DNA of 64,000 bases from a virus, in the IMG/VR virus record IMGVR_UViG_3300044609_000595, positions 32,001-96,000 of that record; one strand, written 5' to 3'. Under the pieces are notes generated by a model. That model was given only the letters and a program-made list of their open reading frames with translations, searched no databases and was not told the origin of the DNA. Each line of letters begins with the position of its first letter. Position 1 is the stretch's first letter. Made by a program: the position numbers and the translations under genes. Below, piece after piece: positions 303 to 48,900 of this stretch.

Positions 303-3300
303 TCAGCTAAAGTTTGTATTGCCTGAACCAAACACGTTAATCGTGCCAGCACTATCTCTTACGATAGTGAATGTGATTACATCGAAGTTATTTGTTGCTG
401 TTGGAGCAGAACCACCAGACCACTTAACTCCACCAGAAACAGCATTACCATTTACACTACAAGCATCACCATAGGTTTGTGCTGTATCACCATCAATGAT
501 TAAAGTTACTGTTGTTGCCTTACTGTTTGCTGTTGGAACGTTAGTGAATGCCCAAGTAGTTACAGAAGCGTTAAGGTCTCCAAGAACAACAGTTGCTGCT
601 GATGTATCTACAGTAAGTGTTCCAGTTGAAGGAGAAAGTGTAGTGTTGAAATTATTTACAGAAGTTTCTGTGATCTGTTTGAGGTTCGTTGTAGTGGTAA
701 CAGTAAGACCACCAAACATAGTTACGTCACCAGTAGAAGCAGAAATAGTTAATCGTTCAGTAAATACAGTATTAGCATCATTAACTGTTCTGAATGTAAA
801 ATAACCGCCACTATTATTGTAAGCACGAAGATCCCATTTACTTTGATTTGCTGTTCCTCCACTTACAGTATATCTGATGAATGGATCTGTAGATGTTAAG
901 TTTACTGAACCAGAAGAAGCACTACCAGCAAAATTAAAAGTAGATGTTCCACTTACAGTTAGACTTGTTAGAGAACCAACAGAAGTTAAACTAGAACTTG
1001 TGACACCACCCCCCAAAGCAAATGAACCAGACGAAGGACCAATCTGAGAATTACTAGCAATTAAAACGTTACCAATTCTGTATTGTTTGCCAGATGCTAA
1101 GTCGAAATGCTCTGTGGATGTCCAAGCATCTGTAGTATCAGACCACAGAATTGATTTATCTGTAGTTCCTTTGAGAACGATACCGCCATTGTTTGCTGAT
1201 AGGTCTGAAGGTCCAACAGCATTAAATGTAGCAGCACCAGATGAACCAGTAACATTGTTTGATAGGGTTGCTGAATTACCACTGATTGAAACAATTGTAG
1301 TGCCAGCAGGAACGCTAATACCAGCAGTTGTAATGCTAACTTCGATGCCAGGAATTAATCCTGCAGTTGGCGTGATACCAGAAATAGTGGCACTATTGTT
1401 TGTAACTGTTGCAACAAAGGTTGAGTTTACAACAGCACCAATTTCAATAGTCTTATCGTCCACCGAAAGAACAGAAGAATTGATTGTCGTAGTGGTTCCA
1501 TTTACTGTTAAATTACCACTCAATACAAAATTACCACCAACGTTAAAGTTTCTTGGCACAGTAACGTCGAAGTTACTATCTCCACGAACCCACGTTTCTG
1601 TACCAGAACCAATTACTAGTTGTCTATCACCAGAAATTGATGGTGGTTGATATGTAGCATTGGTACTATTCTCATCATCAGCAGGACCGATTAAAACGTT
1701 ACCTGTTCCTAGGCAGTTATAACCAGCAAAGTGTCCAATACAAACGTTAGCATTACCACTTTGGCTTTCTCCCAAAGTATTTGAGCCAACAGCAGTATTT
1801 TTGCCACCAACCAGAAGGTTGAGCATTGAATCTCTACCAACTGCTGTGTTGGCAGAACCAGTGTTGGCGTTTCTAAGTGCTCTGTAACCATATGATGTGT
1901 TTGAAGCACCAGAACTTAGAGCTGATGATGCTTCAAAACCTACGGCAGTGTTTTGACTACCAGTTGAGTTGGTTTGTAGAGCATTAAAACCAACTCTGGT
2001 GTTGGAAGCAATAGCGTTTCCGCCTCTACCAATACGGAATGGGTTGGCGCTGGTGCCTCTAATAGTAACATCAGCATTTACGAAATCAACTGTACCGTTA
2101 ACTGTTAGTGTGTCGCCAACAATTGTGTTTAAAGTGACGTTCTTTGCTACACTTAGACCGTGGCGAATTGTTGTTGTGCCAGTACCATTGGCACCTAAAG
2201 TAATTGCTGTGGCAACACCAAAAGCACTAATTGAAGTTGCTGTAGAATTTAATAGAGCAAATGATGTACTAGAGGTTCCGATGCTATCAACAAAGTTTGG
2301 GTTCTGGTTGAATAGTAAAACTCCCGTTCCACTACTATCAGAAATAATACCTCTCAACTGAGTTGAAGTTGTGGTAGCAAACGCCGCTAACGTATCCGCT
2401 GTATAAGCAACACTACCACCAGTTCTAAAAGCAACAGTAGAACCATCAGTACCAGAGAATGTTACTGTATTGCTAGCAGTTAAAGTTTTTGAGTTGGCAA
2501 TTGTGAGTGTGCCAGATGCCGTGGTTGTAATTGTTAATCCATTGATGCTAGTTGCTGTAGCAATACCAAGAGTTGGACTAGTAAGAGTTGGGGAAGTTAG
2601 AGTTTTGTTAGTTAAAGTTTGTGTTTCGGCTTCAGTTACTAATCTACGACGAACAGATCCGTCATAAACACTCCAGTATGAACCAGATTCAAACCACTGG
2701 AGTGATGTATATGTTTGTGCTACTCCAGAAGAATTAGTAGTTCTGTTTAAACGAATACCACCATCAGAACCAACGAGATTATTTCCTCTTCTTAATTCAA
2801 TTTCGTTATCAGTGACGGTTAGAGTTTGTGTATTTAAAGTAGTAGTTGTTCCACTAACAACAAAGTCACCGCCAATAGTTACTGTTGATCCATCATCGGT
2901 AATAATGCTATTAGTAAATTGTTTGTTTGAGTTATCCCATTTAATAACTTTAGAATCAGTAAAGTTGTTTGAGTTTTTAATTGAAAATTCTGTGGTTGAT
3001 AATGTAAGACCACCGTTAGCAGAAGCTGTGTAAGTAGTATTTGTATCTACTGCAGAAATATTGATTGTGCTGCCAGTCTGTGATACGGTAGCAGCTCCAG
3101 AAGAAGTGAAAGTAACATCTCCAGAAACATATGATCCTGTTGCTGTTCCTCTTAACCTAGTTACAGTATTTGTGTCAGTTGACGATATAGTAATTGTTGA
3201 ATTTGTTTGTGATACTACAGATGCACCAGAAGCAACAATAGTAATATCGCCAGTATTATAAGATGCTGTAGTACCACCTCTCACACGGGTGATAGTATCT

Positions 3301-4082
3301 TGAGAAGAAATTGTGATGTCACCACCGTTTTGTGTGACGGTTGATGCTCCTGCTTGAAGGAAAGTAAAATCACCTGAAGCTAAAGTTTGTCCAGTTCCAG
3401 CTCTCAATCGGGTGATAGTATCTGTGAATGTGGAGGAAATTGTGATAATATTTCCTGACTGAGAAACTGATGAGGATCCACTAGCAGCAATTGTGACATC
3501 ACCAGATACTAATGAACCACCAGAAGCAGATTGAATACGTGTTACTGTATCTGTATCAATGTAACTAGAATTAATAGTAATAGCATCGTCAGTTCTAGAT
3601 AGAGTTACATTACTGCCAGCTACCAATGATACGTCATCAGTGACACCAGAACCAGCATTGCCACCTGATGTTAATCTGATAATTTTTTGTGATGATGATA
3701 AACCATCGACAGCAGAAATGCTATACGTTGTGTTATTGTCTGGTGTTGATACCGAACCGCCGAGTGGAATAGAAACCCCGTTTATGTTAATTGCAGAATT
3801 AACTAATGCTGTATTCGGGATATTTGAAAAAATGTTAGCACTACCAGAAATAGTACAATTAGTTAAAGTCTTGTTAGTTAATGTTTGGGTGGCATTTAAA
3901 TATACATCTCCAGGACTGTCCCAAACTAATCCAGTACCAGTGCTTTTTAGATACTCGCCACTAACACCAGTGTCACCATTTATTGATAAGCCATTACCAG
4001 TTAAATCTAGGTTATCTCCAGATACCAGTTCTTCAATCTTTTTTGAAACTGGGTTAACAATTAACGGAAAACGATTTGCCAT
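303..4082 (-). CDS. Long tail fibre protein
   Basis: 1259 aa, T/S/G-rich; about five ~42-aa repeats (DTxTRxR...SGDVT...SQxGxxITISS), QTLTNKTL motifs and NTAVG-type beta-roll repeats. Confidence 0.8.
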   Translation of the reverse strand: MANRFPLIVNPVSKKIEELVSGDNLDLTGNGLSINGDTGVSGEYLKSTGTGLVWDSPGDVYLNATQTLTNKTLTNCTISGSANIFSNIPNTALVNSAININGVSIPLGGSVSTPDNNTTYSISAVDGLSSSQKIIRLTSGGNAGSGVTDDVSLVAGSNVTLSRTDDAITINSSYIDTDTVTRIQSASGGSLVSGDVTIAASGSSSVSQSGNIITISSTFTDTITRLRAGTGQTLASGDFTFLQAGASTVTQNGGDITISSQDTITRVRGGTTASYNTGDITIVASGASVVSQTNSTITISSTDTNTVTRLRGTATGSYVSGDVTFTSSGAATVSQTGSTINISAVDTNTTYTASANGGLTLSTTEFSIKNSNNFTDSKVIKWDNSNKQFTNSIITDDGSTVTIGGDFVVSGTTTTLNTQTLTVTDNEIELRRGNNLVGSDGGIRLNRTTNSSGVAQTYTSLQWFESGSYWSVYDGSVRRRLVTEAETQTLTNKTLTSPTLTSPTLGIATATSINGLTITTTASGTLTIANSKTLTASNTVTFSGTDGSTVAFRTGGSVAYTADTLAAFATTTSTQLRGIISDSSGTGVLLFNQNPNFVDSIGTSSTSFALLNSTATSISAFGVATAITLGANGTGTTTIRHGLSVAKNVTLNTIVGDTLTVNGTVDFVNADVTIRGTSANPFRIGRGGNAIASNTRVGFNALQTNSTGSQNTAVGFEASSALSSGASNTSYGYRALRNANTGSANTAVGRDSMLNLLVGGKNTAVGSNTLGESQSGNANVCIGHFAGYNCLGTGNVLIGPADDENSTNATYQPPSISGDRQLVIGSGTETWVRGDSNFDVTVPRNFNVGGNFVLSGNLTVNGTTTTINSSVLSVDDKTIEIGAVVNSTFVATVTNNSATISGITPTAGLIPGIEVSITTAGISVPAGTTIVSISGNSATLSNNVTGSSGAATFNAVGPSDLSANNGGIVLKGTTDKSILWSDTTDAWTSTEHFDLASGKQYRIGNVLIASNSQIGPSSGSFALGGGVTSSSLTSVGSLTSLTVSGTSTFNFAGSASSGSVNLTSTDPFIRYTVSGGTANQSKWDLRAYNNSGGYFTFRTVNDANTVFTERLTISASTGDVTMFGGLTVTTTTNLKQITETSVNNFNTTLSPSTGTLTVDTSAATVVLGDLNASVTTWAFTNVPTANSKATTVTLIIDGDTAQTYGDACSVNGNAVSGGVKWSGGSAPTATNNFDVITFTIVRDSAGTINVFGSGNTNFS

Positions 4083-4196: not shown

Positions 4197-4230
4197 TTGA
4201 CTTCCTAAATAAAAGGTTGTATTATAAATA
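4197..4230 (+). promoter_or_regulatory. Composite psbA promoter: sigma70-type TTGACT-17-TATTAT overlapping T4 late promoter TATAAATA
   Basis: TTGACT 4197-4202, TATTAT 4220-4225, TATAAATA 4223-4230. Confidence 0.75.
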
Positions 4231-7701: not shown

Positions 7702-8169
7702 ATGAAACCCTTTTCATATTATCAAACGACATCGGTATCAATTCCGAACAAAGATAATTACATGACAATATACTATTACAAAAAAGGAGTAATGGTAGGA
7801 ATGAAAAGACAATTTGATGTTGATTTTGAACCACCAAAAGGATGCGTTGAAGAAAAGGTTTTAGATGAACTTTCTTATAATGCTCATCTGAAACATTATC
7901 ATGAAGAAAATGTTAGATTGCAGAATGAGTTTCGTAGAGATCTCATTTCAAAATATGGTATAGCAAATCATCCAAAAGCAGATAAGATTTTTGAAAAAGC
8001 ATGGGAACTTTCAAGTGGAACTAACTTGAGAGAAGTTGAAGATTATTTTATTAGTCTTGTAGAACTTATCACAACCAACAATGATTTAATTATTGGGGAA
8101 GATACTATTAGTTTCGAAACCAATAGTATCTCCTTTGACAATGTAACTGGAATGCCAATTTTTAACTGA
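7702..8169 (+). CDS. Hypothetical protein
   Basis: 155-aa ORF with an upstream promoter. Confidence 0.7.
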   Translation: MKPFSYYQTTSVSIPNKDNYMTIYYYKKGVMVGMKRQFDVDFEPPKGCVEEKVLDELSYNAHLKHYHEENVRLQNEFRRDLISKYGIANHPKADKIFEKAWELSSGTNLREVEDYFISLVELITTNNDLIIGEDTISFETNSISFDNVTGMPIFN

Positions 8170-8177
8170 TTGAAATT

Positions 8178-8465
8178 ATGTCACTAACTATTGAACAAAT
8201 TGAAGAACAGATTGCTAATCTACAGCAAACTTTAGAACAACTAAAGAATCCTAAACTAGAAGTTGCTCGCCACTTTTCTGGGCAATACTTTGCTCCTTAT
8301 CAAGGTAGACTTTATAGGCGAATGGAATCTGAAGGTATACCCATCTGGGAAACGTACCTTGATATTAAAAAGGAATGGGTTCTTGCCGAGACAAAAGAAT
8401 CCAAAAATCTTGAGAAGACTTATCAACAAGATTGTATTGTAGCTGAAGAAATTATAGAAGAATAA
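8178..8465 (+). CDS. Hypothetical protein with N-terminal coiled coil
   Basis: 95-aa ORF followed by a terminator. Confidence 0.7.
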   Translation: MSLTIEQIEEQIANLQQTLEQLKNPKLEVARHFSGQYFAPYQGRLYRRMESEGIPIWETYLDIKKEWVLAETKESKNLEKTYQQDCIVAEEIIEE

Positions 8466-8496
8466 AAAAATAGGGGGCTTTATGCCCCCTTTATTA
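8464..8496. terminator. Bidirectional terminator between convergent genes
   Basis: A run, AGGGGGC-TTTAT-GCCCCCT, then TTATTATTT. Confidence 0.85.
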
Positions 8497-8916
8497 TTTG
8501 GGTTCCTCTGCAGGAACATACTTATGTTGTATTTTATATCCCATTTCACTTGGCGTCCACCATCCAGATGCTAGAGTAGATATTGAAGTTGCTAAAATTG
8601 CTGATGCTATACCAACACCAACAATCATCCATTTAATTCTGGAAACATCTTCAATTTTTTTCTCTACCAATTCCATTTTTTTATTGACAGAATCTCTCAC
8701 TTCATCAATCATTTTAATAATCAATTCATTAGCTTGTGCGGCATGGTCTAATCTATTTTCATGTCGTTCAAGAATGATAGAAACTGTGTGATTACTTTCG
8801 GTAATCCTATCCACAGCTTTCTCCAACTTGTACAACATTTCTTTAGTTAGATTTTCATAAAATTGAAATTTAGATTCAAGAACTGCAATTTGTCTATTGG
8901 TTATACCAAACCCCAT
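8494..8916 (-). CDS. Coiled-coil protein with C-terminal transmembrane helix
   Basis: Heptad-like N-terminus, WMIVGVGIASAILATSISTLA hydrophobic segment, GGAGA RBS. Confidence 0.8.
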   Translation of the reverse strand: MGFGITNRQIAVLESKFQFYENLTKEMLYKLEKAVDRITESNHTVSIILERHENRLDHAAQANELIIKMIDEVRDSVNKKMELVEKKIEDVSRIKWMIVGVGIASAILATSISTLASGWWTPSEMGYKIQHKYVPAEEPK

Positions 8917-8933
8917 AGTAGTTATCTCCCTGG

Positions 8934-9221
8934 TTAATTGGAAATAATAACTTGGGATGATACATTTAACATATTTTGTTCAATAATTTTTGGCTCAGAT
9001 GAATTATCTGGTGCGGGAGACATTGATTGATAAATGTCAGAATCCTGAATTACATCACTCATATCTCCGTAGTTAATAATGCTTTGATCAACTTCTGCAA
9101 GTTGACTATCAACTATATTTTGTTGGTAATTATAATAGGGATTATAATATCTTCTATAATAATAGGGATCTAGATTGTAATATCTCCTATAGTAGGGATA
9201 TGGTTGGTATCTGTAATACAT
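8934..9221 (-). CDS. Tyrosine-rich protein
   Basis: MYYRYQPYPYYRRYYNLDPYYYRRYYNPYYNY N-terminus, acidic/Gln C-terminus, AGGAGA RBS. Confidence 0.8.
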   Translation of the reverse strand: MYYRYQPYPYYRRYYNLDPYYYRRYYNPYYNYQQNIVDSQLAEVDQSIINYGDMSDVIQDSDIYQSMSPAPDNSSEPKIIEQNMLNVSSQVIISN

Positions 9222-9235
9222 TCTGAATCTCCTAC

Positions 9236-9370
9236 TTAGTAACGATAGTAAGGATAATACGAGTCATAAGGGCAATATCTATCATAATAAGGGTAACACC
9301 CATAGCCGTAAGGGCTGTAGTAGTCATAATATCTCCTGTGGTAATAGGGGTAGTATCGTGGATAGTACAT
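9236..9370 (-). CDS. 44-aa extremely Tyr-rich peptide, not in the ORF track
   Basis: MYYPRYYPYYHRRYYDYYSPYGYGCYPYYDRYCPYDSYYPYYRY* (22 of 44 Tyr), GGAGA RBS 5 nt before the ATG. Confidence 0.8.
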   Translation of the reverse strand: MYYPRYYPYYHRRYYDYYSPYGYGCYPYYDRYCPYDSYYPYYRY

Positions 9371-10115
9371 TTGGTTCTCCTGTTTGGTTTGCTATATCAA
9401 AAGTCCAAATGTCGTATCCTTCCTGTCTAATATAATCGAAAGGAATCCAACAGTATCCGTTGTTTCCCCAAGTAGTTCCAAAACTATTCTTTGCTAAGAA
9501 TAATCTTTTTTCTAAATCATAACCAACCATGCACATAGCATGACCACCAAGACTTTTTTCTTTCCTTCCTGGAAAGTTTACAGTAGAAATACGCTCATTC
9601 AGATCCATAAAACTATCATAAATTTCCATTCCGAATACAACTGGTTTGTTATTATTCAGCACTTGAGTAATATAATAAATGCTAATAAGTTTTTGATACT
9701 TGAGTATTTTTCTTTTTTTAGCATTCGCATAACATTCGTCAGTTGGACGATCATCAAATTTTTCTAAATCATATGGCCATAATGATTCCTCACACACCCC
9801 AAATTTTGCTAACGATTTCAGACCATCTCGTAAAAAGATACCGTTATCTATTTGAATATCTCCATATTCAGCACGGGTGTTGTAATAAATAAACAACCTA
9901 CTGAGGTGGGTGAAGTATTCTGGATACAAACGATTAACACATAATTCATATGCATTTGTAATAGCGTTAGCAGAACAACTGCCTAATGAATCTTGCGATT
10001 CAACATCAGAATCCCACTCACGGAGGTCTACAGATTCTCTGAGAACTTTAGTGCTATCGTTTCTATAAATGTAATCTCTATTATCTTGACGAGATGGTTT
10101 GATATTAAAGTTCAT
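9324..10115 (-). CDS. Papain-like cysteine peptidase (family C1)
   Basis: VDLREW, QDSLGSCSANA (oxyanion Gln and catalytic Cys), SRLFIYYN, GGHAMCMVGY (His), KNSFG (Asn), WGNNGY. Confidence 0.92.
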   Translation of the reverse strand: MNFNIKPSRQDNRDYIYRNDSTKVLRESVDLREWDSDVESQDSLGSCSANAITNAYELCVNRLYPEYFTHLSRLFIYYNTRAEYGDIQIDNGIFLRDGLKSLAKFGVCEESLWPYDLEKFDDRPTDECYANAKKRKILKYQKLISIYYITQVLNNNKPVVFGMEIYDSFMDLNERISTVNFPGRKEKSLGGHAMCMVGYDLEKRLFLAKNSFGTTWGNNGYCWIPFDYIRQEGYDIWTFDIANQTGEPNVLSTILPLLPQEIL

Positions 10116-10124
10116 GATTCTAAA

Positions 10125-10736
10125 TTAGATAATTCTCCATTGACCGCCACGAAATACGACGGATACTGATTGATTAGGTACAGAAATAATGTAAGTGTTT
10201 GCGTTGTCAATCTTTTCAGTTCCAGATGGTTTGATAGTAATCTTTCCAGATCCCTGACCATACTCATCTTTGATTGTATAGACACGACCAGTAACGCCAA
10301 TTGGTAGTGTGATCGTGACTGCTGCTCCACTATAGACACCGATGTATTCATCATCGGCAGTAGCTGTATAAGAACCAGTAACTCCAATGGTAGCAATTAA
10401 ATCTGCACCAGAAGATGATACAGTAATGTTACCAGTAGAACCAGAAAGACTAATACCACTGCCAGCAGTTAAAGAAAGAACACCAGTGTTGGAAATGGTG
10501 AATGATGTATCATTACCTGTAGTAACAACATCAGTCAACTGAATACCATCACCAGAAGAAGGTGTTACTGAGGTGACAGCAACTTCTCCGTTGACGGTAA
10601 CTTGACTGAAAGATACAGAAGCATCTGGAGATACATCTTGTCCTAATGAAATAAATCCATCAAAAACATTAATGAAATCTCCAATTCCAACCACTCCATA
10701 ATCTGTTTTTGATGTAGGTTGTGCTAAGTATGCCAT
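10125..10736 (-). CDS. Fibre-like structural protein with C-terminal phage-fibre-type beta domain
   Basis: GVLSLTAGSGISLS repeat and YTATADDEYIGV...TITLP...GRVYTIKDE...W domain; GGAG RBS. Confidence 0.75.
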   Translation of the reverse strand: MAYLAQPTSKTDYGVVGIGDFINVFDGFISLGQDVSPDASVSFSQVTVNGEVAVTSVTPSSGDGIQLTDVVTTGNDTSFTISNTGVLSLTAGSGISLSGSTGNITVSSSGADLIATIGVTGSYTATADDEYIGVYSGAAVTITLPIGVTGRVYTIKDEYGQGSGKITIKPSGTEKIDNANTYIISVPNQSVSVVFRGGQWRII

Positions 10737-10747
10737 TGTTTACTCCG

Positions 10748-11353
10748 TTAGATGATGTACCAATCTCCACCACGACAAAATAAATTTACCGATTGATAAG
10801 GTACTGTCATTACGTATTTGTCTGTGCCATCGATATAACTACCATCAGAAGTAGTTACAGTTACTTTACGATTTCCTAGTGGCGGACCCATCTCTGCCTT
10901 TACAATGATCTCACAACAGTCGGTACATTCTGAAGGTAACGTAATAGTAACAGGTCCGTCGCTATTGACACCGATGTAGTAATCATCACAAGTAGCAGTA
11001 TAATCAGATGAAACCAAGATGCTTTTGCATTTGCATGAGCACTCTCCTGGTGGTCCCTGCGGTCCTGGTGGACCTTGCTCCCCTGGGGGTCCTGGTATCC
11101 CCTCTCCTGGTGGCCCTGGTGGTCCTGGTGGACCTTGCTCGCCTGGTGGCCCTGGGGGTCCTGGGGGGCATTCATCGGGACAATCATCACCATCAATATT
11201 GATGTTGATATTATCATTACCACCATTGTTAAGTAATTCTGTTATTTCAGAACGAATTGCCTGAATATTACTGAGGAGATTGTTATTACCGCCTCTTTCA
11301 TAATCAGACAACATATTATAAAGATCAATAAGTTTTCTTTCTGCTGAGTCCAT
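10748..11353 (-). CDS. Collagen-like protein (Cys-flanked GPP repeats) with the same C-terminal domain as 10125..10736
   Basis: About 13 G-X-Y triplets (GPP/GEQ) flanked by CPDEC and CSCKC; [13 protein letters not shown]...TITLP...GGDWYII; AAGGAGA RBS. Confidence 0.85.
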
Positions 11354-11367
11354 AGTTATTCTCCTTT

Positions 11368-11395
11368 AAAAAAAGGGGGGAGATAACTCCCCCTT
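11368..11395 (-). terminator. Intra-operon terminator after the first gene of the cassette
   Basis: Minus strand AAGGGGGAG-TTAT-CTCCCCCC-TTTTTTT, immediately followed by AAAGGAGA RBS of the next gene. Confidence 0.85.
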
Positions 11396-11412
11396 ATAAC
11401 TACTGAACTAAA

Positions 11413-12141
11413 TCAGCGAACGTTGTTGCTGGTTGAAGATTGACCAACACCAGCCATGGTTCCAAAGTTAACCATTCCCTGACGGGTTTCTTGTAATTGG
11501 CTTTGGAAAGCATTCAATTGGGAAGCAACTGAAGCAAATTGTGCATTGTTAGCACTACCTACAGCATCCCAGTAACCGTGGCGAAAGTGATTAACATCGG
11601 TATTGCGCTCAATCAGAAGACGATTAAGCTCGTCATTCTTTAGTGATTGAATAAGAGCACGGGTGGCATCACCTTCGTTGGCGATTTCTCTTGCTAGGTC
11701 ATACTTGCTTTCAGCAACTTCCTTGCTGAGTTGTGATTGACCTAAAGCAATTGCGGTGCCAAGTCTTGCTGACTCAAGAGCAGTAGCAGTAGCAGCCTTC
11801 TCAGTAGAGAGAAGAATCTCTGTGCTGAGTTTTTGAGAAGCGAGGTCAGTCTGTGCTCTGAGAGCAGCAAGGTCACGGGAGTTATCAAAATCTCTTGCTT
11901 GCCCAGCAATAAAAAAGTCAGCAGCTCTTTGCTGAATCTTGTCAGCAGCTTCGTCTACCTTGGTTGATACATTAGCACCAGTAACCAAAACTTCACGATT
12001 AATTGCATCGTTGCCAACAGCAACAGCATACTTGGTCTCACCGAAACCGATTGCTTGTTCTCTACGAATATCGGAATGGTCTACAGTATATTCTCTACGT
12101 AAATCTGACCATGGATCAGAATACATTACTTGATCTGCCAT
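11413..12141 (-). CDS. Alpha-helical/coiled-coil protein of unknown function (242 aa), probable major product of the cassette
   Basis: ATG 12141 preceded by TAAGGAGA (preferred over the TTG at 12291); A/Q/S-rich, no Cys, one Pro. Confidence 0.85.
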   Translation of the reverse strand: MADQVMYSDPWSDLRREYTVDHSDIRREQAIGFGETKYAVAVGNDAINREVLVTGANVSTKVDEAADKIQQRAADFFIAGQARDFDNSRDLAALRAQTDLASQKLSTEILLSTEKAATATALESARLGTAIALGQSQLSKEVAESKYDLAREIANEGDATRALIQSLKNDELNRLLIERNTDVNHFRHGYWDAVGSANNAQFASVASQLNAFQSQLQETRQGMVNFGTMAGVGQSSTSNNVR

Positions 12142-12379
12142 TTGTTTTCTCCTTAAGGAAAAGAATGTGTTTGAATAGAGGAGAAAACGATTCAATCCGT
12201 CCATGACATAATGCCAGACGAATCTATCCAACAGACGACTGTAGGTGAATCGTCTGGGATTACTTCTATTTAAAATTGAATCGTAATTCAATTAGAGGTG
12301 AAGGATTAATGAAAGAGCCATTGCTGGAATCTTTTAGTAATACATCTGGTCTCTAACCGAAGGATCTCTCCCCCACGTT

Positions 12380-12387
12380 TATTTATA
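12380..12387 (-). promoter_or_regulatory. T4-type late promoter TATAAATA driving the minus-strand cassette
   Basis: Plus-strand TATTTATA reads TATAAATA on minus, about 240 nt upstream of ATG 12141. Confidence 0.75.
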
Positions 12388-12425
12388 AAAAATGTTTTGT
12401 CGCCAATCGAACAGTTGATGCCCCC

Positions 12426-12454
12426 TTGACAAACCCGAGAAAGCGGCGTACAAT
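12426..12454 (+). promoter_or_regulatory. Sigma70-type early promoter
   Basis: TTGACA-17 nt-TACAAT. Confidence 0.85.
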
Positions 12455-12476
12455 GTCAGAGTAATTTTTGAAACCT

Positions 12477-13145
12477 ATGGCAACCTACAAAATCTGGGTC
12501 AGCTCTGGCGAAGATTCTTTTGCCAGAACATATTTTAATGAGCTTGGGGCAGTCCAATTAACTCAAGAACAAGTCGATAAGTATTTTACTTTTGACGAAG
12601 ATGGTGGAATTGAATTCGACCAAGACCTTCTCTCGGAAGCAACTGAAAAAGAGTACGATGATCCTGAACGTGATATGCCATCATGGGATACCATTACTGA
12701 TGGGTGTCTCTGTTGGGGTCCTGATGTAGATGACCAGAATATTGGTGTCTGTCTGGAAGAAGATGAGGACACTCAAATCTGGGTCAAACCACTTTCTGCT
12801 TTGACTTATTATACAGCAGAAGATATTGAAAATAATGTTCATGCCGAAGAAGATCCTGGCAATGCTATTGCTTGTATTCGATATGAATTAGAAGATTCGG
12901 ATGGCGTGTGGATTGTTTACAATTCATATGAGCGTGGTAGTTACATTGGTGATTTTGAATTGCCTGATGGGGAAGAATTTGATCCGTCCAAATTAGTTGT
13001 TAATCTCACAGAAGTTGCTGAGTCTTGGACTGTGGTGAGTGGCATTGAATACAACGGGGAAGATATCTATTGCGATGGCGATACCATGGGAAAGGGTATT
13101 GATTGGTATGTTTATTACAAAGGAAACCTTTATAACTTTAAATAA
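12477..13145 (+). CDS. Highly acidic hypothetical protein
   Basis: About a quarter Asp/Glu; ATG 12477 just downstream of the promoter. Confidence 0.8.
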   Translation: MATYKIWVSSGEDSFARTYFNELGAVQLTQEQVDKYFTFDEDGGIEFDQDLLSEATEKEYDDPERDMPSWDTITDGCLCWGPDVDDQNIGVCLEEDEDTQIWVKPLSALTYYTAEDIENNVHAEEDPGNAIACIRYELEDSDGVWIVYNSYERGSYIGDFELPDGEEFDPSKLVVNLTEVAESWTVVSGIEYNGEDIYCDGDTMGKGIDWYVYYKGNLYNFK

Positions 13146-36665: not shown

Positions 36666-36700
36666 TTGACAGGCCGCCCCTGATGGTGCTACTATAAATA
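36666..36700 (+). promoter_or_regulatory. Sigma70-type promoter overlapping a late promoter
   Basis: TTGACA-18-TACTAT (TG extended) plus TATAAATA at 36693-36700. Confidence 0.75.
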
Positions 36701-37155: not shown

Positions 37156-37173
37156 TTATTTTAATAATTGTTT

Positions 37174-39904: not shown

Positions 39905-39912
39905 TATAAATA
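39905..39912 (+). promoter_or_regulatory. T4 late promoter TATAAATA
   Basis: Exact consensus 40 nt upstream of the giant structural gene. Confidence 0.85.
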
Positions 39913-39952: not shown

Positions 39953-42900
39953 ATGGCTCTTACAAGACTTGATAATCTTTACTCAAGTAAAACTGGCAGA
40001 TATTTATATGTTTCACCAGATGATTTTAATGCTACTGATGAATTAGACAATCGAGGAAATTCTCCTCTACGTCCATTTAAAACAATCCAGAGAGCCTTTA
40101 TCGAAGTAGCTCGTTATTCATACCTCCCAGGTAGAAATAACGATAGATTTGACCAGTTCAGCATCATGTTGATGCCTGGTAATCACTATATCGACAACCG
40201 CCCAGGTGTAGTTGGTGTTACTAACACAGAACCAAGATATCTTGACGGTGCTAATTTAATCGAAGCAAACCGCCAAGAAATTATTGACAGAGCATTTGCT
40301 GAAATTGCTGTTGAATATGACGAATCTCTTTGGGGAACTGATTGGGTAGTTCCTGGGGATCCCATCAACAGCGATTTAAACAGAGGATTCGATTCATATA
40401 GATTAATCCAAAAAAATCGTTTAGACATTATTGATGAAGCCTTCAACACAATGTTGGCTTTTAATCCAGGATTTGAAGTTCCTAATGGTGATGCAAAATG
40501 TAAGAGAGATATTGGATATTTTGTTGATGCCGTATCTTTAGACATCCTTTTGGGTGGCAGTAACAAGTATACTCGCAAGTTTATTCAAAATTATTTTAAT
40601 TCCACTGGCACTGCTTGGCTTTCCAACACGTTACAAGGTGAGCAAACGCAATCAATTCAAGCATTTAATGCTGCCAGAGATTTGATGAATGAAGCTGTAA
40701 CCAATCAGCTAGATTACAAAGATTTAACTCTTACTGCAGATCCCCTAGTTGGTTCTAATGTAAATATAAATTCTTGTGCAAACATCAGATCTGCTATTAC
40801 TTCTCTCACTACATTAGTTACTGATAGAATTACTGCAAATTCTCTAAATGGTCTTCCTGCAGAAACCCCAGGCATCTTAATCGGTCCAGGTCAATCAATT
40901 TGCCAACGTGATATTGGCTATATTGTTGATGCTGTTGTTGCTGACCTTAAAACTGGTGGAAATAGCAATTCAGTTCAAGCTGCTAGATCATATTTTGATA
41001 GAAATGGTGATCCAATTGCCAATGGTTTGATTGGAGAAGAATCTCAATCAATTATTGCATTCGATGCAGCTAAAGTTATGATGAAAAAGGCTGTAACCAA
41101 CCAGCTGTATTCTAAAGATTTAACTTTGCTAGAAGGTCCTTCTATTGCAAACGCTTCCACAGAGATTCAACCAATTCTTCCTTCTGGCAATGAATTAAGC
41201 TGTGTTGATGTTCAAAATAGCATCGAAACTCTAATTGCTATTATCACTAGTGTAATTGCTGATGGTAATTTAACCAGTCTAGCTGATATTCAAATTACTG
41301 GTGATATTCCTGTATTTAATTACAATCAAGCTTTAGAAGAGTGGAATGACAACAGCATTCTAGATCTTTCTAACCCAGATAACGTTCTCTACAAATTTAA
41401 CGCTGCCACTGGCGGTGCTATCGTGCCCAGAGGCTGCTCTCTAATCGGCTACGACCTGCGTAGAACTATTGTACGACCTCTTTATGTACCTGATCCTGCA
41501 GACGGCACACAGGCCCGTACATCGATCTTTAACCTAACTGGTGGTTGCTACATTTGGCAGTTTACAATTAAGGATGGTGATCTTTCTGCTAATTCTCCTT
41601 TGTTTGATGAAACAAATGGTGTAGGTAAAGTATATTTCCAAAAAGGAAATACAGTAAATCTTGCGATACCTGAGTATTCGCACCATAAGATTACTATCAT
41701 GACTTATGCTGATAGTGATGATTTAACAGATTATTACACTAAAATTGGCAGGGCGTTTGCTAAATTCCAGCCATCTATTGATAATGCTGGAGAATTTGAT
41801 GCTCTAGTACAAGAAAATAGAATTGTAGGACCTTTATCAGATACTAGAAGAATTGACAGCATTCAAGTGTTTGATTCTTCTCCAGCAGGAACCTTAACTC
41901 TTCGTGTAACCACTAAGATTGACCATGGTTACTTTGTAGACCAATATGTTGCTATTTTAAATACTGGATTAGATGAAGCTATCAACGGTACAGTAAAAGT
42001 TACTGCAATTGACAATAGCAATCCTAGAGTATTTGAATACGAAATTAATGCAACTACTGCTGCTCTTGGATTAGTTAGCGGTCAAATTTATACTGCTGCT
42101 AGCGGTCTTAGTACCAATGCAGTTTCTCAAGCAGAAATTGACTCAGTAGAATCTGCTTCTCCATATGTATTCAACTGCTCAATTCGCTCCACCTGGGGTA
42201 TTTGTGGCATGTGGGCGGATGGATCTAAAGCAACTGGATTCAAGTCGATGGTTGTTGCCCAGTATACTGGTGTTTCACTACAGAGAGATGACAGAGCATT
42301 TATTCGTTATGATAGATTTACCAATACTTGGAATCAAGCATCACTGACTGATGCGTTTGCTACTGTAGCTTATCACACCAAGGGCGATGCTTACTGGAAG
42401 GATGACTGGAGAAACTTCCACATTCGTGCTTCTGACGATTCCTTCATTCAGTGTGTTTCGGTCTTTGCTGTAGGATTCTTTGATCACTTCTTAATGGAAT
42501 CTGGTGGTGACATGTCCATCACCAACTCCAACTCCAACTTCGGTAATACTTCACTTCACGCTGTAGGATTTAAAGGATTCTCGTTCAATCAGGATAAAGG
42601 TGGTTATATCACTGATATTATCCCACCAAGAACTATTAATAGTTCACCAAGCAACGAAGAAAAAATACAGTATTATACGCTTGATATTCAAGCATCTAAT
42701 GCACAAAACAATCATACCAGACTTTATATTGGTTCAGATGATGCTACCGATCCAGCAGATCGCCCAGCAGCAACAGTAAGTGGTTACAGAATTGGTGCCA
42801 GAAGTAATGAAAAACTTTATGTAAAATTAGATGATGGAACATATAATGTTACCCTTGAACCAAATGGTTTTGTTTCTTATAAAGCATCGCTAGAAACTCT

Positions 42901-45900
42901 AAACCCAGCTGGTATTCAAATTGATAACGTAGCTCAAGACGCTGCTAATAGAATTGAAGATAACAAAACATTAATTCAAAACGAAGCTTACAATTATATC
43001 ATTGCTAAGTATCCATATCTACTAACCAGACAAAGCATCACAATTGCTAAATGTGAAAGAGACATCGGCTATTTTGTTGATGCTGTAGTACAAGATCTTA
43101 GACTTGGTGGTAATGTAAACACCATTCAAGCTGCCGAAGGTTATTACGTTGGTGGTTCTTTAGCCTACATTAATAGTGAATTAGACGAAACTATCGAAGC
43201 TCTTGATTATGTCAAGAACATGTGTATCGCAGCAATGCGTAACTTTGATGTTCTTATTAGAAATTGTGAGACAGAAGCTGGTTCTGCGATTGTAAATGTT
43301 GGTGATACAACAGGTCTTCTGGTTGGTATGTCAGTTGCTGAATACAATCCATCAGCATTTGTCAATAATAAACTGACTAGTGGGATTTCCCCAATCACTT
43401 CTAATATTCCAACAAATACTTACATTAAGAGAATTCTTGATGATCAAAGAATTGAATTAGGAGAATCTTCTTCCAAATTAACCGCTGGCAATACAATTGA
43501 TGCTCAGCAATCATCATCAACTGCATACCTCTATTTTGATTATCAATTCGGTGCATGGTCTAGCCTACAACCAACCAAAGATGATAGCTTAATTCAAGAT
43601 ACCAATTATCCAGAATGTGCTGATATTGCAACTACGATTTCACAATATTTTAGTGACATATTTGTTGTAATAAATCAAGGATTAACTCCTCTTGGTGGCA
43701 GAGAAATTGATGCACATAACTTAATTTTAGCAAACAAAGAATTGATTGCTGAAGTTGCTGTTGACAGAATGTTAACAAATTATCCTGGTTTTGTTATTCC
43801 AAACGGAAATCAAAACTGTGTGGATGATATTATTGATGTTATGGAAGCAATTGCTTTTAACGTCAAATATGGTGGTAATAATAAAGTATATGAAGCTGGC
43901 GAAATTTATATCAGTGGACAGCATGTTGAAGGAGAGGAAGATCAAGCAGTTTATGCATTCTTGCAGGCTAAAGACATTGCCATTCAAGTAATGAGAAATG
44001 AACCAGTAACTATTACTGGTTCAACTAGAACTCAATTTATTGATTCTACTATTGTAGTAGATCCACAATCACCAACTTGTGCAAATATTGCTTCTGCAAT
44101 TACGAACTTAACTTCTATTATTACACAATCTATTGGCACATCAACAGTTTCTGGTAGCTTAGTTGGAATTACTAAATCAATTCCAACTATCACATCAGTA
44201 AATAAAATTGAACCAATTATTGATTTTAATGGTCTTTCTAAGAGAGCAACATTATTCACAATTAACACTGGGGAAGCAACTTCCAACCCACACCAATTTG
44301 AAACTGGAACTCCAGTTAAACTTATTCCTAAGGCAAAAGAAGGAACTAATCCAGATAAGAGAGTTATTCGTCTACCAAAAGGATTTAGCACCAACACCAA
44401 GTATTATGTAATTGCTCCTGGTAGATTTACTCAGCCAGAAGATTACTCTGGCACCACATATTTTGATGGCTCGGATCAGACCAAATTGATGCTGGCTGCT
44501 ACAAAAGAGAATGCTGCTGCTGGTATCTTTATTTACTCACCAGAAACAGATTCTGTAGATCCTGATGTAGAAATTGAAGTTCAAAGATACATTCTTGACA
44601 ATACATATGATCTACACAAATACAGATGTAATGTTGCTGGTGCTGGAGAAATTGAAACTGACGTTGCACATATCTTTGATCTTCCTAGCAATTCAGTAAC
44701 TCCTCAGCTAGTATTCTTCCGTGTTGCAAATGATATTCTTGGTTCCGATCTTCCAGAAATCGCTGGTGCAGGAACTATCAATACACAAACATATTATTAT
44801 GCTAGATTTATCTCACCAAAGAAATTTAGTATTCACACAACATTTGCTGATGCAATTGCTGGAGTAAATGCGGTTTCGTTTGTTCCTGGTAGTGGGCAGA
44901 ACTTCTATGTATTTGCTAACAAGCGTACCAGCCCACTAAGATTTGAAGCTGCTCCTAGAGATGAAGATGGACTATTACTGAATACCAGTGGTCTTTGGTA
45001 CTTACAAGTTAAAGATGAAACATCAAGCAATCCAAATACAGAAAGCATTCTGTATCGTTTCAAGGATATTGCTGCTTACGGTCCTGGTTCTGGCAAAATA
45101 AGAACACTTGATACTTGGTTTACTAGATTACAAGATACCAGAGGTAAAGAAGATCGTGTTTATAGATTACGTTATGTAATTCCTAAGTATCTTGAAACTG
45201 TTCGTGATCCTCTCAACGGTTTTGTTATCAAAGTTCGTACAGACGATAAGAGACGTTTAGTTCCACAAAAATTTGTACTTAAGCCAATTGGCGGTGCTCC
45301 ATCTGTAGCTAGATTTGACAACCCAGAACAGATTGGCGAAAGAATTGGCTATACCAAAACTGAACTTCTCGAAGATTATGGTATTGCTAATCCTACTTAC
45401 GATCCATACTTAGCACCTAAAGTAATTGGTAGCGAAAGAACTCAGAGTAAGATTGCCTTTACAATTCAGTCTGCTAGAAAAATTGAAGATGAAAGTACAG
45501 AATATCTAGAAATCACCGCATTTGATCATGCTATCACGAATGAAGGACTGAAAAATGAAATTTTCAGTGTTGTTGAAATTAATTTCCCTCAGGGTGGAAC
45601 ATTCTCGGTTAATAATGTTGGCGCTGGATTATCAAATCTAGTAACCTGGAATGGCTTCTCTAGTGGAAGTGGTTATATCCAAGGATATTTCGAAGAAAAT
45701 AATAATTATTATCTAGTAATCAAAAATATCACTGGTCAGATTAAATATAGCAGCATTGTTTCTACTAGATTTACTCAGGGTGATGTATTTGCTGATCTAA
45801 TGGCTAAACCCAATAGCATGGGTGATCCGAATGGCAAGGATAAGTCTGATCGCAGAGATTATCTGTACAGAATTGAAGGAGCCAATGTTTATACTTTAGT

Positions 45901-48900
45901 TCCAGGAGATATTATTACTGATGATGCTAATAATCAGTATAGAATTGAAAATGTTCGTGACGCTGGAAATCTTGAAGATAGTTTCTACATCTTCGACATC
46001 GACACAATTCAAGAGAGAATTGCTGGTCAACAAGATGGTATTTACTATCTAACTTGCCTTCGTGGTAACATTTCTCCATTCCCAACTGGAGCTGGTGTTG
46101 GTACAAACTTCAGAAACTTTAAGTTCTCGCAGCCAATTTCACAACTATATCCACAGAATTATAAGAATGATCCTACGTGGTTCAAGCAAGTTAATTCTGT
46201 ATACAATGATCCCCCTGCATCTATTGCTGCAGCAGACAACTATATTCATGGTTTAGTTACTATCAACGATGCTAAAAATAGCGAAACTAAAGAATTGGTT
46301 CAGGATTTAATTCTGCAGCCAGCATTAACTAATTTCACTTTTGTTAAGGCAGAATCTTTAAGTTCCGCAACTTTAAATCCAGTTGGTGGTTCTAATATCA
46401 TCGAAGCTCAGGAAGGTAATGCTACTTCTGGTTCGGAAGATAGATACATTCCTATTGCTGGTGATTCTGATTTCCCAACCGAAGGAAAACTTTATGTAGA
46501 ACTACGTAGACCTTCTATTGCACGTTCGGGCAACCATACATTTGAATACCTAGGTTTCGGTCCTGGTAACTACTCAACTGGCTTCCCACTTCGCCAGGAA
46601 GTTGTTCTTGCCGATGTTCAAGACTTCTATGCTCAGTCTAAGAGAGAAGACGGTGGTATCGTATTCTATACTGGTCTAAACTCCAACGGCGATCTTTACA
46701 TTGGCAACAGAAAAGTCAACGCTATTACTGGCGAAGAAACTTTCCTTGAAAGAGCAGTTCTAGAAGAATCTGCTGATGACGGTGGAGATGATTTGGGTGG
46801 TCTAGTTACAACCTTCGACACTCCTGTAACATTTAATGATAGAATTACTGTTGAAGGTAATGCTAATTTTAACAATCCTGTAGAGATTAGTGTTGCTGCA
46901 AACGAAGGAACTCCTCTTAGAATCTTCAGTGTAGTTAATGCTGATCTTGGCGATGATATTACATTAGGAAGAGCACAATTCCCTCAATCTAATGATGGTG
47001 ACATTACTCTAGGTAAGAATAGAATTAATGCTGCAGTATATGGAATTACTCCAAGACAAGTTCTTGGTTTAGATGGTCAAGCATATTCTATTAGAACTCA
47101 CTTTGTAAATGGTCTTGGACCATCGAATACAACTCCAGATCAAAATGCAACATTCAGTTCTCTGCAGGCAGTATCCTATAGTTCTACTCAAAATCCAAAG
47201 CCAGGTGATATTTTACTAAAAGGCAGTGAAGTAGGACGTTCAGGTTCACTTGGTTGGATATATGCCAACTATTATGCTGAAATTGCTGATGCCAGCATTC
47301 AAACAATTGTTAGTGATGGCATTCGCATGACAATTGAATGGGCTCCTGGCATAACAAATGCTGATGTTAACGTCATTGCAGGTGCTCAGCTAAGAATTAC
47401 AAACTTCGGCACGAATCCAAATCTTAACGGCATTTGGACTGTTCTTTCTAATGGATTTAGTTCCAGTGGTACTTCATGCCAAATTCAAATTATTATAACT
47501 CCAGCAGTTGGTGTTCTTTATACTTGGTCTACCGTTCCTGGTGCCAAGATGGAAGTTGCCCGCTCCAATTGGAAGGAAACTGGACTACTTGGTGCAGAAG
47601 CACTCAGAACTGAGACAGAAACCTGGGGCGATTATAAGTTAGGTATCAACACTCTTTCTAGAGCTTCTGATCTTGCTTACTTGAATGGATTTGTTCAAAC
47701 TCAAACACAACCAAGAGCTAATCTTGATGTTGTTGGTGATGCATTTATTAGCGGTACAAATACTGCAATTACTGTAACAAATACAGGAAATCAAGTTAAG
47801 ACTACAACTAAACTAGATAATGCTTTCTTAGTTGGTGGAAATAGTGCTTCTCCAAACCAAGCTGCAACACTAAGAGTTGCAACTATTGATATCCCATCTG
47901 GTAGTAGAGCAACAACTACTTATAGAGACGGTGGAAGATTTGGTATTAATACAACAATTAATACTAATGCATCAACTGATCTAGATAGAAACTTAGTTGT
48001 TGTTGGTGATGGTAGAATTACAGGCAATCTGTTAATTCAAGATGATATTAGTGTAAACGGTGGAGATATTAACACCACTAACAATGTATTCAATTTTGTT
48101 AACAATAATGCTACTATATTGAATATTGCTGGTAGCGGTGAAATCTTTAGCATTGGTAATAATGCTGCTGGCTCACAAAATGTTAATATTGGCAATAATG
48201 CTTCATCTCAAGTAATTGAAATTGGTGGCAATGCAACAATTACCAGACTTGGTATTCACAAAAATTCTCTTGACGCTAGCGTTGATATTGCCTCTGTAAA
48301 TGATAATGCTGCTAACAAGGCAAACATCGTTATTGGTGGTGCCTGGGGCAATCTGAACAGCCAAACAACAATTGGTACATTCCAAACCAAGGTTGCTGGT
48401 CAACTTGAAATTGGTACTAAGTATGCTCCAGGAACAAGCACTGCTAGATTGTTCACTCAAGCAAGAACAGTAAATCTATTTGATGGAGACCAAACAACTA
48501 CAGTTAACTTTGGTCCAAACGCTACCAAGATGTCAATTGGTTCTGTTGGTGGTAATACTTACATCAGAAACACTCTCAATGTTGATGCTAGCACAATTCT
48601 TAATTCTGAATTGAGACTATCTGGTGGTCTCAAGTCTGGCATCATTCAAATTCAAAGAGGAAGATTCTCTACAACTCCAGCTGCTCATGTTGTTGGTAGC
48701 CTAGAGAATCCAAATATTGATTTCTATAGATACGAAACATTAGGTAGAAAAATTGATACTGCTGGTGAAACTTTATGGGGTGGTCCAGCATTCTTGATTG
48801 CTGGTGGTCAAATTGCAGGAATTGATACTATTGGTGCCGTAAGTCCATCCAGATTACCAGGAACATATACTTTTATTGCTCCAACGGGTGGAACTGGCAC

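Follow-up and report, generated by a model that had tools for sequence, protein, structure and literature searches.

Gene content and setting of the cassette

The window considered here is a 64,000-nucleotide stretch (positions 32,001 to 96,000) of the virus record IMGVR_UViG_3300044609_000595 of IMG/VR, a record of 110 kb that is estimated to be 57% complete. At window positions 8494-12387 it carries a cassette of seven minus-strand open reading frames (ORFs), here called g1 to g7, enclosed between a copy of the T4-type late promoter motif TATAAATA and a two-way terminator. With roughly even chances of being right, we read this cassette, which is known here from its genes alone, as an accessory fibre module of aquatic T4-like phages, horizontally mobile and expressed late, whose product probably sits on the virion. 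An earlier, sequence-only reading of the same DNA had seen in it a kit for a cross-linked coat, fibre or matrix; the seven ORFs that it listed, their positions and minus-strand orientation, and their inversion relative to the surrounding plus-strand genes were all confirmed. The genes are:

11413-12141, minus: g1, 242-aa all-helical rod protein (AF2 model, periodicity)
11416-11523, minus: C-terminal tag of g1, last 36 aa (SQLxxxxQGMVNFGTMAGVGQSSTSNNVR; conservation)
10748-11353, minus: g2, 201-aa fibre protein (Pfam Collagen, knob)
10125-10736, minus: g3, 203-aa fibre protein (AF2 knob, stalk repeats)
9324-10115, minus: g4, 263-aa predicted papain-family (C1A, xylellain-like) cysteine peptidase (Pfam, PDB match)
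9236-9370, minus: g5, 44-aa peptide, 50% Tyr, two conserved Cys (composition)
8934-9221, minus: g6, 95 aa, Tyr/Arg/Pro-rich N-terminus, g1-type tag (9018-9125), acidic or Pro-rich tail
8494-8916, minus: g7, 140-aa coiled coil with C-terminal membrane helix (DUF7201 / T4-GC_201)

On one side the cassette is flanked by psbA, talC (transaldolase) and gnd (6-phosphogluconate dehydrogenase), and on the other by genes for a glutaredoxin, a T4-type RNase H, phoH, a gp48-like tail-tube assembly protein and a large M23-peptidase protein, which we take as a probable gp5-like hub. The combination of psbA, talC and gnd with the RNase H, phoH, gp48-like and M23 genes identifies the window as part of a T4-like cyanomyovirus, and the carrier is a T4-like cyanophage of the freshwater type; for cyanophages with this cassette, freshwater Synechococcus or Cyanobium would be likely hosts. 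GGAG ribosome sites precede six of the seven cassette genes, the exception being g4, as against about 7 of the 46 other ORFs of the window. The sequence-only reading had made the same point about these sites, and the contrast with the rest of the window is consistent with acquisition of the cassette from a lineage with different translation signals.

Two of the products have the layout of fibre proteins. In g2, an N-terminal helix is followed by a Cys pair, about 13 G-X-Y triplets, a Cys knot and a Cys-rich beta-sandwich knob. The Pfam Collagen family matches residues 64-103 (8.8e-7, 29 bits against a cut-off of 27.2), and matches of g2 to tail-fibre PHROGs likewise run via the collagen part only; with G-X-Y repeats beside a predicted trimerising domain, g2 classifies by sequence as a collagen-like protein. 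In g3, a conserved N-terminus leads into a Gly/Ser/Thr-rich beta-repeat stalk that ends in a knob of the g2 type. The C-terminal 90 or so residues of the two proteins are 45% identical, which bears out the paralogous fibre domain of the sequence-only reading, just as the Pfam matches bear out its collagen (g2) and its papain peptidase (g4, Peptidase_C1).

The knob of g3 is modelled by AF2 with a pLDDT above 90 for residues 120-203, and it is this domain that yielded structural relatives. In VIA-align, residues 113-203 superpose on residues 79-175 of tailspike TSP4 of phage CBA120 (7REJ; Z 12.6, rmsd 1.8), and the same knob superposes on residues 66-163 of T4 gp9 (1QEX; Z 10.8) and on T4 gp10 (5IV5; Z 10.1), these three alignments covering 86-89 residues at rmsd 1.8-2.0. 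Residues 111-203 match the knob of the Pa223 capsid spike (residues 195-289) with Z 10.2, and further superpositions were found with baseplate proteins of Klebsiella phage KP1 and with the C-terminus of an Acinetobacter tailspike. A search of BFVD gave 266 matches at E <= 0.001, and those named among the top 50 include baseplate Gp9/Gp10, collagen and tail-fibre proteins. By the criterion of fold, the modelled end domain of g3, and with it that of g2, is a beta-sandwich of the gp9/gp10 type.

Sequence profiles say little about this kinship. None of the seven genes matches a T4 core morphogenesis family in Pfam or PHROG, as the sequence-only reading had maintained; the Pfam family T4_gp9_10_N is uninformative in this respect, having no match at E <= 0.01 in this genome and likewise none in control genomes. 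In g3, Pfam detects no more than a sub-threshold match to Phage_depo_C, and no N-terminal adaptor sequence common to g1, g2 or g3 and any other protein of this genome came to light.

The first gene of the cassette encodes a protein of quite another kind. The AF2 model of g1 consists of two long helices (residues 22-116 and 120-228), and the hydrophobic periodicity has a sharp peak at 3.67 residues, so that on the model g1 is a helical rod built on an 11-residue (hendecad) repeat. Its N-terminus contains a variable number of SDIRRE-type 11-mers, and its last 30 or so residues are nearly invariant and form the most conserved part of the family. The family has more than 1000 metagenome homologues, none of them named and none with a Pfam domain. 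The g1 protein itself has no match in Pfam, PHROG or NCBIfam, its model has no Foldseek match in the PDB, its profile gives no more than a chance-level coiled-coil match among PDB sequences, and in the ESM Atlas it meets only unnamed viral clusters. It is probably an abundant subunit.

The invariant end of g1 recurs in g6. A 35-residue motif, S-Q-[LI]-x4-Q-x-[MI]-x-N-[FY]-G-x-M-x2-V-x-Q...N-x-x-R, rich in Gln, Asn and Gly, is common to the g6 family and the C-terminus of g1 (hhalign probability 96%, E 1.9e-9), and within this genome it is present in these two proteins only. When the tag profile was run against 1.84 billion cluster representatives, 151 clusters were retrieved, comprising just two kinds of protein: proteins of 200-450 aa with the tag at the extreme C-terminus, and small proteins of 55-130 aa (93 clusters), mostly rich in Tyr, Arg and Pro, in which the tag follows the Tyr-rich part. 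Since two proteins of the cassette share the tag and two share the knob, the tag would seem to be a joint or docking element. We also considered it as a recognition site for the protease, which is less likely, the tag being nearly invariant also where neither a protease nor a Tyr-rich gene is present in the 6 kb fetched.

For g4, Pfam gives Peptidase_C1 (PF00112) at 1.4e-13 and 51.9 bits, against a cut-off of 20.7, over residues 27-224, and the closest solved chain is 3OIS (E 2.8e-38, residues 7-238), that is, xylellain of Xylella fastidiosa. Nearly all full-length relatives retain Gln41, Cys47, His192 and Asn210, and g4 can thus be predicted to be a C1A peptidase with a complete set of catalytic residues. 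With xylellain it shares these catalytic Gln, Cys, His and Asn residues, a short N-terminal extension and membership of the bacterial-type C1A group; unlike xylellain, it is phage-encoded and translationally linked to fibre and Tyr-rich genes. It has neither a signal peptide nor a long propeptide. The gene starts 9 nt after g3 and has no ribosome site of its own, and the start of g5 overlaps its 3′ end. The g5 peptide consists of Tyr for exactly half of its length (22 of 44 residues), and its homologues in relatives keep the same overlap with g4 and a conserved core, ...GC.PYY.RYCPYY. Together with 18 Tyr among the 95 residues of g6 and 10 Cys in g2, these counts agree with the compositions that the sequence-only reading had given.

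In tblastn against 50,697 phage records, g4 found only distant proteins of jumbo phages, Lak phages and an Alicyclobacillus phage, at 22-36% identity, and no collagen or Tyr-rich neighbours are annotated next to them. The Alicyclobacillus phage is MMB025 (locus L084, 47982-50243), in which a C1-peptidase domain with 29% identity to g4 forms the N-terminal part of a 753-aa protein annotated as an ‘endolysin’; the gene lies just downstream of tail-fibre genes. In one close relative of our cassette (locus L026, 6001-6591) the g4 homologue is cut to 196 aa and has lost the region of the catalytic Cys, and the protease may there be dispensable or decaying.

The last gene, g7, duplicates a gene that is widespread in cyanophages. 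Its product matches Pfam DUF7201 (PF23831) at 1.6e-25 and is 38-45% identical to T4-GC_201 proteins, whose gene is found upstream of the gp61 primase gene in 288 cultured cyanophage records. Since the present genome retains a canonical T4-GC_201 copy in just that position (G000 C1:17401-17751), g7 is an accessory second copy, paralogous to the canonical one. The sequence-only reading had counted it as a regular seventh member of the cassette, which did not hold: a duplicate of the gene beside gp61, it is present in only 4 of 35 related loci and was rejected as a core member.

Promoter motif, terminators and leader RNA

Four elements outside the coding sequences appear to govern the expression of the cassette:

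12380-12387, minus: TATAAATA, exact match to the T4-type late promoter motif (putative promoter)
12142-12379, minus: structured 5′ leader RNA of g1 (12-sequence alignment, covariation)
11368-11393, minus: predicted intrinsic terminator (attenuator) between g1 and g2, 7-bp GC-rich stem and T-run
8472-8490, both strands: terminal hairpin, 7-bp stem with six GC pairs

Across the whole window the TATAAATA motif shows no enrichment (5 found against 7.4 expected). Its copy in front of the cassette is nonetheless a conserved feature: at least 12 distinct relatives have it, at a distance of 245-312 nt upstream of g1. The sequence-only reading was right in placing a late promoter motif here; what had to be corrected is its relation to g1, from the start of which it is separated by about 240 nt, and the gap is filled by a conserved, structured leader. 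The same reading had called an internal and a bidirectional terminator, and both were found. The hairpin and T-run after g1 recur in close and distant relatives, down to 35-40% identity in g1. At 8472-8490 the minus strand has a strong T-run and the plus strand a weaker one, and this terminator closes both the cassette and the plus-strand genes that converge on it.

The leader, about 240 nt long, is more strongly conserved than the N-terminus of g1 itself. RNAalifold, applied to 12 sequences, gave a fold of nine helices and 64 pairs, 20 of which show compensatory changes; 97% of cells are paired, as against 36-52% in slid controls, and none of 500 shuffles reached the observed values, all of this support being computed for a single consensus fold. 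The final hairpin overlaps the AAGGAG ribosome site of g1. The leader is present as a single copy in this genome and, in the cyanophage clade, always lies directly upstream of g1. An Rfam search of positions 8000-13000 at E <= 1 returned nothing relevant to it. We noticed in addition that CCAGACGA (at about 12205-12212) can pair either with TCGTCTG (about 12183-12189) or with TCGTCTGG (about 12168-12175), and two alternative 3′ partners hint at a possible switch.

In the more distant relatives of the cassette a protein takes this place. A gene for a LuxR/GerE-HTH regulator of about 230-290 aa, the N-terminal domain of which has no family assignment, lies directly upstream of g1 in 15 of 21 distant loci (L065:5150-5830, L074:4513-5256, L072:5083-5817 and 12 further loci), and in none of the cyanophage clade. 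In the cyanophages, expression would be set by a late promoter and a structured leader RNA, and in other T4-like jumbo phages by a LuxR-type regulator in the leader's position. That the same genes are headed by an RNA leader in one group and by a protein regulator in the other makes for a natural experiment in how the control of an acquired module is rewired.

Conservation among uncultured phages

About 80 loci, of which 43 are distinct, were retrieved from IMG/VR with g4 and g1 as queries, and genes were counted in the 35 distinct loci that offer at least 4.5 kb downstream of g1. In all 35, g2 adjoins g1. A Tyr-rich ORF is present in 29 and g3 in 26; g4 occurs in 19, plus two loci where it lies farther away, a count that is biased upwards in the half of the loci that were fetched via g4. 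The minimal unit is therefore g1 plus g2, and the order in the close clade is g1-g2-(g3)-g4-g5-g6-(g7). Overall, about 40 distinct contigs of uncultured phages preserve the gene order. This co-occurrence shows that the cassette is a real unit with conserved synteny, as the sequence-only reading had supposed.

Distant variants with the order g1-g2-Tyr-rich-g3-g4 were found on contigs of up to 400 kb, with g1 identities down to 33-40%. A T4-type gp23 is encoded in three of five distant carrier records, and because the distant carriers encode Lpp-like and porin-like proteins, we infer that they are not cyanophages. Inside the distant cassettes we also came across three more conserved families without a Pfam match, labelled x153/x220 (L066:7387-7848 and L072:9523-10185), x190 (L074:5249-5821) and x177 (L065:7565-8098).

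Among cultured phages the cassette has no counterpart. Against the 50,697 phage records, a megablast of the whole cassette gave no match and neither did tblastn of g1 and g3, which upholds the earlier impression that no described cyanophage system is like this one, in that no cultured record has g1, g3 or a close g4. A search of 185,579 bacterial and archaeal genomes with profile patterns of g1 brought up no relative, and a full-text search of the literature turned up no description of such a cassette. The module is nevertheless common, the rod family alone numbering more than 1000 metagenome members, and it is spread over T4-like cyanophages and jumbo phages of other hosts while being entirely unstudied. 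Its hendecad rod and its tagged Tyr-rich peptides are two families for which no relatives have been described, and the module has in addition a system-specific address tag, an uncatalogued structured leader RNA and a papain-type protease, an enzyme with no known role in phage assembly.

Accessory fibre or non-virion product

An accessory fibre is favoured by the folds, by the collagen and beta-repeat stalks, by the Cys-rich design, by the T4-like nature of the carriers and by an apparent absence of export signals. Inspection by eye, with no predictor involved, noted a signal peptide in none of the six core products and a membrane helix in g7 only, from which a cytoplasmic assembly, like that of virions, can be presumed; the Cys-rich design suits a role outside the cell. 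In such a fibre, g1 would form the rod or main polymer and would be made in excess, since its ribosome site is the strongest and an attenuator follows the gene. The shared tag would dock g1 and g6 to one common partner, most likely the knob/adaptor domain of g2 and g3, given that T4 gp10 and CBA120 TSP4 use this fold to carry other fibre proteins. The product would be a composite or branched fibre, in which the Cys clusters beside the short collagen would lock the trimer in oxidising water, the Tyr/Arg/Pro-rich segments would serve as sticky or cross-linkable ends, and the protease would trim one of the assembly partners.

The known systems that come closest are those of the gp9/gp10 type. The domains of T4 gp9 and gp10, of CBA120 TSP4 (domain XD, 7REJ) and of KP1 (9F4A) superpose on that of g3 with Z 10-12.6 and rmsd 1.6-2.0, and g2 can be likened to them via its 45% identity to the g3 knob. 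In gp9, gp10 and TSP4 the domain is a docking platform within trimeric appendage proteins, and we suppose the same role for it in g2 and g3. The differences are that the domain is C-terminal here and N-terminal there, that g2 and g3 are small (about 200 aa), and that the cassette lies outside the baseplate block and includes a rod, Tyr-rich peptides and a protease that are absent from those systems. Another parallel is the spike gp52 of phage Pa223, a capsid-attached trimer composed of an attachment domain, a stalk and a knob, which is an accessory decoration of the capsid and is thought to aid adsorption (bioRxiv 10.1101/2025.06.11.659172). Its structure (9NY6) is laid out like g3, with a short segment for attachment at the N-terminus, a stalk rich in beta structure and a knob at the C-terminus. 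The two are only 14% identical, however, and gp52 belongs to a small podophage and is the product of a single gene without rod, collagen, Tyr-rich or protease partners.

Several observations weigh against a virion fibre. The fold match is limited to the knob, of about 90 residues, and the AF2 models are of monomers with modest overall pLDDT values (71 and 73). As the fold is known both as an adaptor and as a distal knob, it does not indicate where in a structure the protein would sit. The docking of tag to knob is pure conjecture, and the tag persists also where the stretch fetched contains no Tyr-rich or protease gene. An excess of g1 over g2, as the attenuator would bring about, is more easily reconciled with a polymer that has minor components than with a 1:1 composite fibre. 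The cassette is placed among auxiliary metabolic genes and not inside the structural gene block, and a LuxR-type regulator dedicated to it, as in the distant variants, is unusual for virion parts. To our knowledge, moreover, no phage fibre requires a papain-type protease or 50%-Tyr peptides.

It is because the excess of g1, the site away from the structural block, the separate regulation, the Tyr-rich peptides and the protease fit no known fibre system that a non-virion polymer or matrix has to be kept in the discussion. On this account the cassette would make a late structure that surrounds virions or the lysing cell, be it a cross-linked matrix, a shell or an occlusion-like body; g1 would supply the bulk polymer, the collagen, Cys-rich and Tyr-rich proteins would cross-link it, and the protease would serve in maturation or release. 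The strong ribosome site of g1 and the conserved attenuator set g1 for excess, hendecad rods can form filaments or lattices, and a 50%-Tyr peptide and the 10 Cys of g2 would be suited to cross-linking; the position outside the structural block and the dedicated regulator or structured leader point the same way. There are analogies too: BclA of Bacillus is a collagen-like exosporium glycoprotein with a C1q/TNF-like knob, CotC and CotU are Tyr-rich and ExsY and CotY Cys-rich, and in baculoviruses the hyper-expressed p10 and polyhedrin are paired with a C1 cathepsin. These are analogies only. The likeness to the Bacillus coat and exosporium, drawn already in the sequence-only reading, is good as regards composition (a short collagen with a knob, small Cys-rich and Tyr-rich proteins, proteolytic maturation) and does not extend to homology, since no coat, exosporium or occlusion family was matched and g1 is in none of the bacterial and archaeal genomes searched. 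Nor did Pfam, PHROGs or NCBIfam reveal coat or exosporium homology or a cross-linking enzyme (transglutaminase, peroxidase, laccase) in the seven proteins and three flanking ORFs, and the cassette shows no oxidase, peroxidase or transglutaminase that could form Tyr or Gln cross-links. Such evidence as there is from folds points solely to phage fibres, tailspikes and baseplate adaptors, so that the coat or matrix is not supported in the form first put forward, and two of the seven products, g2 and g3, turned out to look like the ordinary tail or neck components that had been named as counting against it. Furthermore, we know of no such matrix or shell in any phage. We therefore consider a non-virion structure unlikely. 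Should the tag be an element of co-assembly (for example a cross-beta or foldon-like joint), the outcome would be a late polymer of rod and Tyr peptide, a new phage-made material, which we regard as similarly improbable. With the same low expectation, this polymer might be pictured as a network of filaments, a coat or a matrix in which virions are embedded; disulfides and possibly dityrosine would harden it outside the cell, knobbed collagen fibres would be a minor part of its surface, and no greater probability attaches to the LuxR-type regulator or the cyanophage leader RNA acting as its timing switch.

Two further accounts are weaker than both the fibre and the matrix. In one of them, which we hold to be rather more doubtful than the matrix, g1 and g4 are assembly helpers, a chaperone and a processing enzyme for the fibres, and are absent from the final structure. 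In T4, gp57A and gp38 aid the folding of tail fibres, and fibre chaperones are commonly encoded beside fibre genes; g1, helical and made in excess, always adjoins one. However, the large size and rod shape of g1, its variable number of repeats and the nearly invariant terminal tag that it has in common with a second protein are features of a structural joint, and g1 lies upstream of the fibre gene, where typical Tfa-type chaperones are found downstream. The other account, which we think very improbable, makes g4 a lytic or surface-degrading enzyme and g7 its holin-like partner, the fibre proteins being unrelated neighbours. The homology of g4 to the N-terminal domain of the MMB025 ‘endolysin’ and a weak match of g7 to a holin PHROG (7.5e-4) would fit with it. 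That ‘endolysin’ label is an annotation only, though, and g4 has neither a wall-binding domain nor a secretion signal. In addition, the rarity of g7 and its being a duplicate of a gene that normally stands by the primase gene count against such a partner, and the tight linkage of g4 to g3 and g5 suggests a function shared with them. A role in defence or anti-defence was dropped, NCBIfam and PADLOC having returned nothing meaningful for any of the seven proteins.

If the cassette does encode a virion fibre, it matters for how abundant, uncultured freshwater-type cyanophages adsorb and for which hosts they infect; if its product is not part of the virion, it would represent a new kind of phage product.

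Elsewhere in the window, TATAAATA occurs on the plus strand at 4223-4230 before psbA and at 39905-39912 before the gene for a 3530-aa protein, in both cases within about 70 nt, and at 36693-36700, about 470 nt upstream of an ORF at 37168; judged by sequence, these three sites are likely late promoters. The 3530-aa protein (39953-50545, plus) and a 1259-aa protein (303-4082, minus) have no Pfam match in the parts tested and contain Gly/Ser/Thr-rich beta-repeats, which in a search of this single genome weakly resemble the stalk of g3 (E 9e-7 and 1e-4, respectively).

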